Shown one piece after another: positions 3,627-55,442 of a stretch of 64,000 bases of DNA. Location of the stretch: assembly GCF_044647545.1 (NCBI RefSeq), contig NZ_CP172818.1, one strand, 5' to 3'. The notes below the pieces were generated by a model. That model did not search any database and was not told the origin of the DNA. It was given only the letters and a program-made list of their open reading frames with translations. Both the position numbers and the translations under genes were made by a program. The stretch comes from Escherichia coli. Its GTDB lineage: Bacteria; Pseudomonadota; Gammaproteobacteria; Enterobacterales; Enterobacteriaceae. Numbering within the stretch: the stretch's first letter is position 1; the number at the start of each line of letters is the position of its first letter.

Positions 3627-5117
3627 ATGAAATTGCACCATAGAATGCTCCGGCATTTTATCGCCGCAAGTGTCATTGTGCTGACATCTTCCTTCCTTAT
3701 TTTTGAACTTGTCGCCAGTGACAGAGCAATGAGTGCCTATCTGCGCTATATCGTGCAGAGAGCAGACTCCTCCTTTCTTTATGATAAGTATCAGAATCAG
3801 AGTATTGCCGCGCATGTGATGCGCGCGCTCGCTGCTGAGCAGTCGGAAGTGTCGCCAGAACAGCGGCGCGCCATCTGCGAGGCTTTTGAGTCTGCCAATA
3901 ATACCCATGGCTTAAACCTGACTGCCCATAAATACCCTGGCTTACGCGGCACACTACAAACCGCATCCACTGACTGCGACACAATTGTGGAAGCTGCTGC
4001 ACTATTACCCGCTTTTGATCAGGCAGTGGAAGGCAACCGCCACCAGGATGATTACGGTTCAGGTCTTGGGATGGCCGAAGAGAAATTTCACTATTATCTC
4101 GATCTCAATGACCGCTATGTCTATTTTTATGAGCCGGTTAATGTTGAGTACTTTGCGATGAATAACTGGTCCTTCCTGCAGTCAGGAAGTATTGGCATCG
4201 ATCGCAAAGATATTGAAAAGGTATTTACCGGGCGTACCGTATTATCGAGCATTTACCAGGATCAGCGTACTAAACAGAACGTGATGAGTTTGCTGACGCC
4301 GGTATATGTCGCAGGGCAGCTAAAAGGGATTGTGCTGCTGGATATTAACAAAAACAATCTGCGGAATATCTTTTACACTCATGACCGCCCTCTCCTCTGG
4401 CGTTTTCTCAATGTCACGCTAACTGATACAGATTCGGGGCGCGACATTATCATCAACCAGAGCGAAGATAATCTGTTCCAGTATGTCAGTTACGTCCATG
4501 ACTTACCGGGCGGCATTCGTGTCTCGTTATCCATTGATATTCTTTACTTTATCACGTCTTCGTGGAAAAGCGTTCTGTTCTGGATTTTGACGGCGTTAAT
4601 TTTGCTGAATATGGTGCGGATGCACTTCCGTTTATACCAAAATGTGTCGCGAGAAAATATTAGTGATGCGATGACTGGACTCTATAATCGCAAAATTTTA
4701 ACCCCTGAACTGGAGCAGCGGTTGCAGAAGCTGGTGCAATCCGGTTCTTCGGTGATGTTTATTGCAATTGACATGGACAAGTTAAAGCAAATAAATGACA
4801 CCCTTGGTCATCAGGAGGGGGATTTAGCGATTACGTTATTAGCGCAGGCGATTAAACAGTCGATTCGTAAAAGTGATTATGCCATCCGACTCGGTGGCGA
4901 TGAATTCTGCATCATTCTTGTCGATTCGACACCGCAAATTGCAGCACAACTGCCTGAACGTATCGAAAAACGTCTGCAACATATCGCGCCGCAGAAAGAG
5001 ATCGGCTTCTCTTCCGGTATTTACGCGATGAAAGAAAACGATACGTTACATGATGCGTATAAAGCTTCCGATGAGCGTTTATATGTCAATAAGCAGAACA
5101 AAAACAGCCGTTCATGA
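3627..5117 (+). CDS. dgcJ: Membrane diguanylate cyclase (intact GGDEF)
   Basis: ATG at 3627 preceded by AGGAG gives 496 aa; motif RLGGDEFCI present; ORF track start 3447 is an upstream in-frame extension. Confidence 0.85.
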   Translation: MKLHHRMLRHFIAASVIVLTSSFLIFELVASDRAMSAYLRYIVQRADSSFLYDKYQNQSIAAHVMRALAAEQSEVSPEQRRAICEAFESANNTHGLNLTAHKYPGLRGTLQTASTDCDTIVEAAALLPAFDQAVEGNRHQDDYGSGLGMAEEKFHYYLDLNDRYVYFYEPVNVEYFAMNNWSFLQSGSIGIDRKDIEKVFTGRTVLSSIYQDQRTKQNVMSLLTPVYVAGQLKGIVLLDINKNNLRNIFYTHDRPLLWRFLNVTLTDTDSGRDIIINQSEDNLFQYVSYVHDLPGGIRVSLSIDILYFITSSWKSVLFWILTALILLNMVRMHFRLYQNVSRENISDAMTGLYNRKILTPELEQRLQKLVQSGSSVMFIAIDMDKLKQINDTLGHQEGDLAITLLAQAIKQSIRKSDYAIRLGGDEFCIILVDSTPQIAAQLPERIEKRLQHIAPQKEIGFSSGIYAMKENDTLHDAYKASDERLYVNKQNKNSRS

Positions 5118-19766: not shown

Positions 19767-19795
19767 TCAAAAAAAACGCCGGATTAACCGGCGTC
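19767..19795 (-). terminator. Rho-independent terminator after fadD
   Basis: Minus strand reads ACGCCGGTTAATCCGGCGT followed by T8. Confidence 0.6.
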
Positions 19796-19813
19796 TGACG
19801 ACTGACTTAACGC

Positions 19814-21499
19814 TCAGGCTTTATTGTCCACTTTGCCGCGCGCTTCGTCACGTAATTCTCGTCGCAAAATTTTTCCGACGTTAGATTTCGGTAACTCATC
19901 ACGAAACTCCACCAGCTTCGGTACTTTGTAGCCCGTGAGCTGACGGCGGCAAAAGGTCACCAGTGACTCTTCGGTAAGCGATGGATCTTTTTTCACTACG
20001 AAGATTTTCACCGCTTCACCACTGGAGCCGGAAGGTACGCCAACAGCCGCGACTTCCTGTACGCCAGGATGCTGCATGACGACATCTTCAATCTCGTTGG
20101 GATAGACGTTAAAACCGGAAACCAGAATCATGTCTTTTTTACGATCGACAATGCGCAGGAATCCTTCTTCATCCATCACCGCGATGTCGCCGGTGTGTAA
20201 CCAGCCATTTTTGATGATTTCATCGGTAGCATCCGGACGCTGCCAGTAACCCAGCATCACCTGCGGTCCTTTGACACAAAGCTCACCTGGTTGACCCGGT
20301 GGTACTTCGTTGTCGTCGTCATCCACCAGTTTGGCTTCCGTCGACGGCACCGGCAAACCGATGCTACCACTATGATAATCAATATCATACGGGTTAACGC
20401 TGACCAGCGGCGCACACTCGGTCAGGCCATAACCTTCCAGCAGATACTGTCCAGTCAGTTTCACCCAACGTTCTGCCACCACTTGCTGAACAGGCATCCC
20501 TCCGCCTGCGGAAAGATGCAGACTGGAGAAATCCAGCTGCTGGAACTCTTTATTGTTCAGCAACGCATTGAACAAGGTGTTAACGCCAGTGATAGCGGTA
20601 AACGGATATTTCGCTAACTCTTTTACCAACCCTGGAATATCGCGCGGGTTAGTGATAAGCAGGTTCTGCCCACCCAGTTCGATAAACAGCAGGCAGTTAA
20701 TGGTCAGGGCAAAAATGTGATACAGCGGCAGCGCCGTCACCACCAGCTCTTTGCCCGGATGCAACAGCGGACCATAGGTCGCGTTAACCTGTTCCAGGTT
20801 CGCCAGCATATTGCGGTGAGTCAGCATCGCGCCTTTCGCCACACCAGTGGTACCGCCGGTGTATTGCAGGAAAGCTAAATCTTCCGGCACCAGTTCGGGT
20901 TTGACGTACTGCATCCGGTAGCCGCTGTGCAGGGCGCTACGAAATGAAATGGCATCTGGCAGATGGTATTTCGGCACCAGACGCTTGATGTATTTAACAA
21001 CGAAATTGACTACCGTGCCTTTTGCCGTAGATAGCTGATCGCCCATACGGGTCAGAATTACGTGCTGAACGGCGGTTTTATCAACCACTTTTTCCAGAGT
21101 GTGGGCAAAGTTAGACACGATAACAATCGCCGATGCGCCGCTATCGTTAAGCTGATGCTCAAGTTCACGCGGGGTATACAACGGGTTAACGTTTACGACA
21201 ATCATCCCGGCACGCAAAATGCCAAACAGCGCCACCGGATATTGCAATAAATTAGGCATCATCAACGCAACGCGATCGCCTTTCTTCAGTCCCAACCCTT
21301 GTTGCAAATAAGCGGCAAACGCGCGACTGCGTTCTTCCAGTTTGCGGAAGGTCATCACCTCCCCCATATTCACAAACGCGGGTTGATCGGCGTAGCGCGC
21401 GACCGACTGCTCAAACATATCTACCAGAGATTGATAACGGTCAGGGTTGATCTCCGTCGGAACGTCCGCGGGATAACGGTTAAGCCAAACCTTCTTCAA
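19814..21499 (-). CDS. fadD: Long-chain fatty acyl-CoA synthetase
   Basis: AMP-binding signature ([15 protein letters not shown]); 561 aa from a non-ATG start (LKKVWLNRY...); ORF track Met at 21565 is upstream of it. Confidence 0.9.
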
Positions 21500-38796: not shown

Positions 38797-38889
38797 GACA
38801 ACTCCGGCAGGATACTAAAGGCCGCAAGTGTAACGCGAATCACGCGGCGGGCAAATATCCGAACGCCTGGAGCGAAGATAAAGCAAAGT

Positions 38890-38916
38890 AAAAAGCCTCG
38901 CATTCGGCGAGGCTTT
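38890..38916 (-). terminator. Rho-independent terminator after cspC
   Basis: Minus strand reads GCCTCGCCGAATGCGAGGC followed by a T run. Confidence 0.6.
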
Positions 38917-38961
38917 ATAGCGAGATTGAAGCGTATTCACACTTCAGATCAGTGGATTCGA

Positions 38962-39171
38962 TCAGATAGCTGTTACGTTAACAGCTGCCGGACCTTTCTG
39001 GCCGTCCTGAATTTCGAACTCAACGTTCTGACCTTCAGCCAGAGTTTTGAAGCCATTACCCTGGATAGCGGAGAAGTGTACGAACACGTCTTTGCTGCCA
39101 TCAGCCGGAGTAATGAAGCCAAAACCTTTAGACTCGTTGAACCACTTAACCTGACCTTTAATCTTTGCCAT
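38962..39171 (-). CDS. cspC: Cold-shock-domain protein CspC
   Basis: 69-aa [23 protein letters not shown]... with RNP1/RNP2 motifs. Confidence 0.95.
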
Positions 39172-39183
39172 TTGAAAAATTCC

Positions 39184-39327
39184 TTAGATTGTTTTCTTCG
39201 CCCGCAGGCATAACATAGATAAAACTGACACATTACTGCATGAGGCACCAATATAAGGCTCGGCAGAGAAGCGGTATTCAACGTCAACGTGTTTACTCAG
39301 GACTTCTTTACTGAAAATGCCACACAT
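39184..39327 (-). CDS. yobF: Small protein YobF (47 aa), co-oriented just upstream of cspC
   Basis: Hand-translated: [47 protein letters not shown]. Confidence 0.65.
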
Positions 39328-39996
39328 AAACAGAACTGTACCTCGTTTAACCCGAAATCTGTTATCACATACAACGTTAATTATGGCAAGCCATTTTTAA
39401 ACATGTCTCGATCAGACGCACAAATCTCGATACGTCTTCCACTTTTTTTGCACACTTATGCAACGGAATACGCGCCGATATATCATTGTGCTTAACCTTG
39501 CCAGTTCAGGCAGATACTTAAACTGACGTATTTTCTAACATAGTTCAATAAGTTCAGTTGTTCCAGGCCAGTGGGAGAAGTTATTACATAGTGCGTGCAA
39601 TATCACATTTTCTGCTATGCAATGAATAAAAAGTTATATCACTTTTTCTCATAAAACAGTCAGTTAACGGCCACCAATTACCCCAAAGAGAAGTCAATCC
39701 CCAATGGTATTGTAAATTTAAAATAAGAAAAATTGATGAATGCGCAAAAAAATCAAGAGAGAAACGTTTCGCTAATAAATAATACCATGCTTAATCACAA
39801 ATCCGATGTAAACATCCTAATAAATTAATGGGCTAAATATCTTTTTCTGATATCCCGTTACGCAAATAAATAATATGATAATTATTTGAAGTCAGACCAG
39901 AGTTTTAATTTGAAGCAGTTGCACCATGACAGTGCGTATAATCAGGATGAATTGAGTAACCCTTCAACGACGGGGTTACTCAAGATTGAGGAAGGA

Positions 39997-54048: not shown

Positions 54049-54705
54049 TTATTGCAATTGCACAACAGTCAGTTCGCCCCCAAAGACAGCACCGGTATCA
54101 ATATAATGCAGGTTGCCAATATCCACGCGATGGCGCAACGGTGTATGACCAAACCAGAAATGATCAGCACCTGTAATTCCCTGCCCTTTTTGGCGTTCAC
54201 CTAATCGCGAGCGGCTCCACAAGACCTGATGCAAATCAACGTCCTTTTGCCATTCATAAACATCATCCGGATAATCGGCATGGGCAATAACATGTTTGCC
54301 GGTGCGACTGTGTACTTCAAGAATAAAGGGCAAATACTGACATTTTTCCAGCGCCGTTTTCGCTTGTTTCTGTTGATAATCTGCCAGCGCAATAAACCAG
54401 TCGCCGCCATTCATCAACCATAAAGACATCTGCCGGGATGCCAGCGCATCCATCGCCATCTGTTCATGATTGCCTCTTACCGCACGAACCCAATGTTGTT
54501 CCAGTAACTGCAGGCAACGTAAACTTTGCGGCCCACGATCGATAACGTCTCCCACTGAGATAAGTAAATCTCGCCACGGATCAAAACGACAATGCCATAA
54601 TTTGCGGCGCAACTGCTCAAGACAACCGTGTATATCGCCTGAAAGCCAGATATGTCGCCATTGATGACCCGCAATTCTCTGATAAACGGGCGCAGGCTGT
54701 TTCAT
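54049..54705 (-). CDS. pphA: Ser/Thr protein phosphatase 1 (PPP family) PphA/PrpA
   Basis: About 218-aa ORF with metallophosphatase motifs (GDIHG, GDVIDRG, GNHE). Confidence 0.85.
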   Translation of the reverse strand: MKQPAPVYQRIAGHQWRHIWLSGDIHGCLEQLRRKLWHCRFDPWRDLLISVGDVIDRGPQSLRCLQLLEQHWVRAVRGNHEQMAMDALASRQMSLWLMNGGDWFIALADYQQKQAKTALEKCQYLPFILEVHSRTGKHVIAHADYPDDVYEWQKDVDLHQVLWSRSRLGERQKGQGITGADHFWFGHTPLRHRVDIGNLHYIDTGAVFGGELTVVQLQ

Positions 54706-54799
54706 CAATATTTTCCTCCCGCGCTAAAGATCACATAATCTTAACAAGAATGTTAAAAAACGCTGGACTCAGACAGTAGAGTGTGTGTTATGGTTGACT

Positions 54800-55072
54800 A
54801 TAAAGTCAGCGAAGGGAATGCTTCTGGCTTTTAACAGATAAAAAGAGACCGAACACGATTCCTGTATTCGGTCCAGGGAAATGGCTCTTGGGAGAGAGCC
54901 GTGCGCTAAAAGTTGGCATTAATGCAGGCTTAGTTGCCTTGCCCTTTAAGAATAGATGACGACGCCAGGTTTTCCAGTTTGCGTGCAAAATGGTCAATAA
55001 AAAGCGCGGTGGTCATCAGCTTAAATGTTAAAAACCGCCCGTTCTGGTGAAAGAACTGAGGCGGTTTTTTTA
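54800..55072 (+). ncRNA. ryeA: sRNA RyeA (SraC), antisense to SdsR (5' end not determined)
   Basis: Plus-strand terminator at about 55032-55072 (CCGCC...GGCGG then T7) downstream of the SdsR locus, consistent with the known cis-antisense arrangement. Confidence 0.35.
54840..54942 (-). ncRNA. sdsR: sRNA SdsR (RyeB)
   Basis: Minus strand reads GCAAGGCAACTAAGCCTGCATTAATGCCAACTTTTAGCGCACGGCTCTCTCCCAAGAGCCATTTCCCTGGACCGAATACAGGAATCGTGTTCGGTCTCTTTTT, matching the remembered SdsR sequence including terminator hairpin and U-tail; boundaries within a few nt. Confidence 0.65.
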
Positions 55073-55100
55073 TTGGAAATCAAAAGGCTATTTTAGGTAA

Positions 55101-55442
55101 TTAACAGAGTTTTTCAGCTCGTTCTATAAACGGTGCCAGACTCATTTTTTCGCCGGGATTGTTAGGATCATCAATCTGAATCACCGAAATGGGTTGGGCT
55201 TTAGTCTTCCCACTGGCAACTTCCTTTTGTGCGATATCGTTTAAAGGATACTGCACGAGGGTACTTGGGTTAATGACATACAAAGCATTACCTGGTCGGC
55301 AAGTCAGCATCACCTCTTCGCGATTAAACGCCCATTTGTCTTTACCCACTTCAAAACGGCTGACGGTAATCACCTGCGGTGCAGCCAGCGCCGCTGCAGA
55401 ACTGGTGAGTAACAGAAACGCCAGAATACTTTTTTTCATCAT
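55101..55442 (-). CDS. yebY: DUF2511 periplasmic protein YebY
   Basis: 113-aa ORF with signal peptide; last gene of yobA-yebZ-yebY. Confidence 0.85.

Follow-up and report, generated by a model that had tools for sequence, protein, structure and literature searches.

The sdsR/ryeA small RNA locus between pphA and yebY in an Escherichia coli genome: signals, conservation and competing readings

What lies between pphA and yebY in the E. coli DNA analysed here, where an ORF track offers only two short reading frames? An earlier note, made from the sequence itself, had proposed a convergent, overlapping pair of small RNAs, with SdsR (RyeB) on the minus strand and its cis-antisense partner RyeA (SraC) on the plus strand. 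We followed up this proposal in the window, which is the whole 64-kb stretch of DNA analysed and in whose positions all coordinates are given unless another sequence is named. Positions 54700-55110 are almost certainly the E. coli sdsR/ryeA locus, with two predicted small non-coding RNAs on opposite strands between pphA and yebY. The two RNAs have been studied in E. coli and Salmonella since 2001 and are curated in K-12; the pair is already known, and there is nothing new about the locus itself. Our observations concerned its sequence identity, both promoters, both terminators, the RNA structure with its covariation, and the conservation of the gene neighbourhood.

Identity of the locus and its relation to K-12

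The curated features of MG1655 (ryeA, 1923066-1923337, plus strand; sdsR, 1923104-1923207, minus strand) were moved to the window by a constant offset, placing RyeA at 54802-55073 (+) and SdsR at 54840-54943 (-). When the 411 bases from 54700 to 55110 were compared with MG1655, three mismatches were found (54816, 55007 and 55022), all of them in RyeA-only segments, and SdsR, both promoters and both terminators were identical. Counted along RyeA, these SNPs fall at +15, +206 and +221, the first of them in a predicted hairpin loop. Among 5426 complete E. coli genomes, just one lacked the 411 bases, and in 237 of the other 5425 the locus was not covered at 80% or more in one piece. The sole genome examined of those 237, E. 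coli CFSAN018748 (L122), carried a 711-bp IS200C directly after the T-run of the RyeA/yebY terminator and before the yebY stop codon, at the equivalent of window positions 55069-55075.

An Rfam scan of the whole window at the gathering threshold returned four matches, two of them at sdsR/ryeA. The SdsR_RyeB model (RF00111) matched 54939-54840 (-) over model positions 1-100 of 100, scoring 114.4 bits where the gathering score is 38 (E 1.8e-21 for the 64-kb window), and the SraC_RyeA model (RF00101) matched 54836-54980 (+), scoring 175.1 bits (E 2.9e-40), above its gathering score. Near-identity to K-12 and two family matches far above the gathering scores supported the naming of the pair as SdsR and RyeA.

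Two further matches were recorded elsewhere in the window. The first was to the Rfam "cspA thermoregulator" (RF01766) at 38887-39347 (-), with 137.6 bits and a gathering score of 78; by the K-12 offset, which was verified only near sdsR/ryeA, it would cover yobF-cspC (K-12 1907226-1907591), and it is probably the cspC paralogue with its leader and not cspA itself. The second was a full-length match to sroD at 19770-19855 (-), with 115 bits and E 1.4e-22; the offset puts it, in K-12, at the fadD 3' end and in the gap between fadD and rnd, where the RefSeq record shows no RNA feature.

The features of the locus are collected in Table 1. Among twelve other E. coli genomes listed, RefSeq/PGAP gave no feature under SdsR or the 3' part of RyeA, and the earlier remark that the element is invisible to ORF-based annotation was a fair one. 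The practical value of the present results lies in annotation, as sdsR/ryeA was missed both by ORF-based tracks and by RefSeq in those twelve genomes.

Table 1. [quoted passage not shown]
Feature	Position	Strand	Basis
pphA (protein phosphatase 1), downstream of sdsR	54049-54705	-	ORF, K-12 annotation
ryeA promoter core, extended -10 TGtTATGGT	54786-54794	+	read from sequence; identical to K-12
RyeA (SraC), ~272-nt cis-antisense sRNA, fully contains the SdsR complement	54802-55073	+	K-12 transfer, Rfam RF00101, published ends
Short ORF, 63 aa	54806-54997	-	ORF list
SdsR Rho-independent terminator, 11-bp stem 54874-54846, then CUUUUU	54840-54874	-	terminator scan
SdsR (RyeB), ~102-nt sRNA, predicted to associate with Hfq and to act on other mRNAs	54841-54942	-	Rfam RF00111, K-12 annotation, PMC6610125 ends, K-12 identity
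Short ORF, 38 aa	54934-55050	+	ORF list
sdsR sigma-S type promoter	54949-54977	-	read from sequence
Two-way intrinsic terminator, ends RyeA on + (T7 55065-55071), probably yobA-yebZ-yebY on - (U5 after stem)	55030-55071	both	folding
yebY, conserved upstream neighbour of sdsR	55101-55442	-	ORF, K-12 annotation

Structure and signals of the two RNAs

The ends of SdsR were taken from published mapping, in which primer extension and RACE placed the start 1 nt downstream of the older annotation, corresponding to window position 54942, and the 3' ends at +100 to +102, corresponding to 54843-54841 (PMC6610125, Choi et al. 2019). Together with the Rfam match and the K-12 transfer, these ends showed that the minus-strand interval first proposed for SdsR, 54840-54942, had been right within 1-2 nt. 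For the whole RNA, the fold had three hairpins and an energy of -34.8 kcal/mol (z = -4.4); none of 200 dinucleotide shuffles folded as well. A 3' hairpin and U-tail had also been claimed, and the consensus terminator scan located both, with the stem followed by CUUUUUAU and the fold being significant. Compensatory double changes were found at 6 of the 11 pairs of this stem in 106 sequences (among the matches listed); one pair, as an example, was GC in 94, AU in 4, CG in 4 and UA in 4. The 5' segment formed a hairpin in all 82 distinct variants among the matches listed, with 100% at -4 kcal/mol or lower vs 30% of shuffles. RNAalifold run on the MAFFT alignment missed this 5' hairpin because indels misalign that variable segment; its absence was rejected as an artefact, as separate folding with shuffled controls recovered the hairpin in every variant.

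Upstream of SdsR, the minus strand carried a -35-like CTGGAA (54977-54972), a 17-bp spacer, a C at -13 (54955) and the -10 hexamer TATTCT (54954-54949), with C-TATTCT standing 7 nt upstream of the SdsR start. The C and a TAnnnT -10 were kept in 111 of 112 related loci; 106 loci had a -35-like hexamer, and in 105 of them its spacing was the same (both among the matches listed). The sigma-S dependence of sdsR, with mutagenesis of the -13C (PMC3333887), and the sigma-S selectivity of its promoter in vitro (PMC6610125) have been reported. A T-rich tract at ~54995-55005, reading GCGCTTTTTATTGACC on the minus strand, lies ~20-30 nt upstream of the -35-like hexamer. The tract was common to most Enterobacteriaceae genera aligned, and the sequence flanking it was not conserved; the tract may serve the sdsR promoter much as an UP element does.

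On the plus strand, the extended -10 of ryeA consists of a TG at 54786-54787 and the hexamer TATGGT at 54789-54794, 6-8 nt upstream of the starts at 54800-54802. The K-12 promoter depends on sigma-70 and has three adjacent start sites, and the transcripts are trimmed to the most downstream of them, window position 54802 (PMC6610125). Downstream, the plus strand holds the mirrored SdsR terminator hairpin followed by CAGGGAAAU, which contains no U-run, and read-through by RyeA is therefore expected at this point. The terminator of RyeA itself was predicted in the earlier note at about 55032-55072, and folding placed it there as a bulged hairpin (55030-55069) with a T7 behind it and a G/C core pairing 55035-55039 with 55060-55064 (dG -19.6, z = -3.8). 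The 3' RACE ends of RyeA at +261 to +270 correspond to 55062-55071 (PMC6610125), and the K-12 ryeA feature ends at 55073.

The same terminator segment has an A-run at one end and a T-run at the opposite end, and its minus-strand fold had a dG of -19.8 (z = -6.3). A simple consensus scan did not report the RyeA terminator because the stem has a bulge and an internal mismatch; direct folding gave the hairpin on both strands. For the yobA-yebZ-yebY transcript, too, the segment is probably the terminator, 31 nt past the stop codon of yebY.

The locus thus arranged has an opposite-strand promoter beyond the SdsR terminator and an intrinsic terminator beyond the sdsR promoter, which would yield an RNA of ~250-270 nt spanning all of SdsR. 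The promoters face each other and the entire sdsR unit is contained in ryeA, and the description "convergent, overlapping" was accurate. We accepted RyeA here as a predicted transcript because K-12, in which the RNA has been mapped by experiment, has exactly the same sequence at the promoter, the start region and the terminator.

Conservation of the locus and competing readings

At least 120 Enterobacterales loci were collected by a genome-collection scan with an exact 19-base pattern inside SdsR; the invariance of this 19-base core in the collected loci is by construction, and the other observations concern sequence outside the pattern. Of 120 related loci among the matches listed, 111 had yebY directly upstream of sdsR and in the same orientation. 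The conserved sdsR promoter, hairpins and yebY neighbourhood agree with Fröhlich et al. 2012 (PMC3333887). On the other side of sdsR, pphA was the direct downstream neighbour in 4 of 120 loci among the matches listed (E. coli, Citrobacter werkmanii, Pseudenterobacter and Silvania). Transcription of pphA by read-through from the sdsR promoter has been described (PMC6610125), and with pphA downstream in so few loci, the reported sdsR-pphA co-transcription is therefore lineage-restricted.

With a strict pattern, 4 of 112 loci had, downstream of sdsR, a second partial copy of the 3' arm of the SdsR terminator with its T-run (GTATTCGGTCTTTT) (among the matches listed). In E. albertii (L005) and Salmonella enterica subsp. 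arizonae (L091), this copy lay ~56 nt downstream of the SdsR 3' end, looser versions occurred in Citrobacter and Trabulsiella, and none was found in the window. The copy might be what is left of a duplication, or it might act as a back-up terminator.

The signals of RyeA followed another distribution. Across Enterobacteriaceae genera, the RyeA-strand terminator lay 112-127 nt beyond the SdsR 5' end, its position and structure kept while its stem sequences differed (among the matches listed), and it was not found at that position in the Yersinia, Serratia, Pectobacterium, Erwinia and Pantoea loci among the matches listed. An antisense extended -10 (TGnTATGGT or TGnTATAA) occurred in 51 of 112 loci, vs 2 on the other strand and ~3 in shuffles (among the matches listed). 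The distance from this motif to the SdsR 3' end was 70-89 nt in most motif-bearing loci, whereas in E. coli it was ~45 nt (among the matches listed); the longer distance agrees with a report that SraC is ~35 nt longer in Salmonella and Shigella (PMC3333887). Outside Escherichia, the RyeA-only 3' segment was conserved only at the sdsR promoter, the T-rich tract upstream of that promoter, and the terminator. Within E. coli, this segment was at least 99% identical in 2663 of 5425 genomes (49%), vs 5208 of 5425 (96%) for SdsR. RyeA is narrower in distribution than SdsR.

These distributions bear on a reading in which sdsR-ryeA is mainly a "type VIII" toxin-antitoxin, with SdsR as an RNA toxin that kills through repression of yhcB and RyeA as its RNA antitoxin, the two forming an addiction or persistence module and not a stress regulator. 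Reviews name the pair as the first type VIII example (PMC8610362), ectopic SdsR caused cell death that was relieved by RyeA overexpression (PMC8610362, PMC6610125), and SdsR in the window lies entirely inside a fully complementary RyeA, as in that type. However, SdsR toxicity has been reported only on ectopic overexpression, and the locus is core chromosomal, being present in all but one of the complete E. coli genomes. No matches were obtained in the phage records searched, and matches were found in only 11 of 72,556 plasmid records, nine of them 0.26-5.4 Mb and two ~3.7 kb in size, all called non-mobilizable; these plasmid-labelled matches look like mislabelled chromosomal sequence. Moreover, SdsR and its promoter were kept in families where the RyeA terminator was not found, and the RyeA promoter motif was absent in about half of the loci (among the matches listed); the "toxin" is therefore often kept without the "antitoxin". 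We consider it unlikely that the pair is mainly a module of this kind, and the locus is read below as a core chromosomal regulator.

The narrower distribution of RyeA also touches the question of whether only SdsR is real in this strain, in which case the plus-strand "RyeA" would be the reverse complement of SdsR and its promoter joined to the yebY terminator read backwards, and there would be no RyeA transcript. The Rfam RyeA model could not decide this, as RF00101 covers 145 nt that are essentially antisense SdsR and the sdsR promoter. The model scored 169 bits in Yersinia aldovae (L002, positions 3690-3835) and 147 bits in Serratia marcescens (L082, positions 2019-2166), two loci in which the RyeA-strand terminator was not found at the usual position and which are both outside the set with the antisense promoter motif. 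Since loci with SdsR signals only give it nearly as high a score, RF00101 alone is no proof of a RyeA gene; the match therefore adds nothing beyond the SdsR match and was rejected as independent evidence for RyeA, and "RyeA" annotations based on this model alone may be wrong. The covariance-model check that the earlier note had suggested thus succeeded in part: both families matched, but the match to the RyeA model was not independent of that to SdsR. These scores, the restriction of conservation outside Escherichia to the sdsR promoter and the terminator, and the greater polymorphism of the RyeA-only 3' part within E. coli are all compatible with SdsR standing by itself. Against this, no base differs from K-12 in the ryeA promoter, the start region or the terminator, and K-12 RyeA was mapped experimentally (PMC6610125), which makes the loss of RyeA from the picture highly improbable.

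That the region encodes a small protein is scarcely conceivable, and the two short ORFs, which had already been called spurious and which do exist mechanically, were rejected as coding: neither matched Pfam at E <= 1, the SdsR homologues carry 1-, 2- and 3-nt indels in their hairpin loops and any reading frame across SdsR would therefore break, stem substitutions were compensatory for RNA pairing, and the sequence under the 38-aa ORF is conserved no further than Escherichia.

Proposed regulation and comparison with known systems

For the regulatory pair sdsR/ryeA, expression, sigma-factor selectivity, Hfq binding, targets, RNase III decay and transcriptional interference would carry over from published experiments in K-12 and Salmonella. 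Because SdsR is identical to that of K-12, experimental results on its targets (tolC, mutS and yhcB were considered) should be transferable to this strain.

In stationary phase or under stress, polymerase carrying sigma-S would start at 54942 on the minus strand and stop at the hairpin and U-tail near 54841, producing SdsR of ~102 nt. The RNA would bind Hfq, and its conserved unpaired centre would base-pair with other mRNAs, leading to their repression. SdsR has been described as transcribed by sigma-S, abundant in stationary phase and bound to Hfq, in work that also dealt with ompD (PMC3333887). Some transcripts would be expected to pass the SdsR terminator and to continue into pphA.

During growth, sigma-70 polymerase would start at 54800-54802 on the plus strand from the extended -10 promoter, pass the mirrored SdsR hairpin, which has no U-run, and stop at 55030-55071, leaving a RyeA of ~272 nt. 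RyeA transcription by sigma-70 was mapped in K-12 by primer extension, RACE, in vitro transcription and Northern blots (PMC6610125), and its expression in exponential phase and the mutual, RNase III-dependent decay of RyeA and SdsR have been reported (PMC6610125, PMC3333887). RyeA could then counter SdsR through duplex decay, and head-on polymerases could interfere with the transcription of sdsR and pphA; acting together, decay and interference would confine SdsR to stationary phase. The K-12 work described this mutual degradation, an interference of convergent ryeA transcription with the sdsR promoter, and the formation of pphA mRNA by read-through of the SdsR terminator (PMC6610125).

A wider role for RyeA may also be imagined. 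The RyeA terminator is predicted to work in two directions, and the 3' end of RyeA should therefore be complementary to the 3' end of the yebY-operon mRNA over ~40 nt. We take the yobA-yebZ-yebY operon to be copper-related. Compared with most Enterobacteriaceae, E. coli has its ryeA promoter nearer to sdsR by ~35 nt, beside the E. coli-restricted downstream pphA (among the matches listed). Beyond counteracting SdsR, RyeA might link three things in a single circuit specific to the E. coli lineage, namely how stable the yebY-operon mRNA is, SdsR, and the expression of pphA, although we regard this speculation as quite improbable.

Compared with known systems, SdsR in the window agreed with K-12 sdsR (b4433) in its sequence over the whole RNA, in its three hairpins, in its sigma-S type promoter with the -13C and in its place downstream of yebY; no difference was detectable, and the two are one gene in two E. 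coli strains. RyeA shared with K-12 ryeA (b4432; also SraC, IS091 and Tpke79) the promoter, the start region, the SdsR-complementary segment and the terminator, and differed by the three SNPs relative to MG1655. The type VIII toxin-antitoxin class was defined on sdsR-ryeA itself (PMC8610362); set against that label, the pair has the distribution of a core chromosomal regulator, is not found on genuine plasmids or phages, and often has SdsR without RyeA signals. The same logic is set out in the title and abstract of an eLife 2021 article on another pair, from an unrelated locus (PMC8687705): the sRNA acts in trans, its antagonist is encoded in cis, and RNase III is involved.
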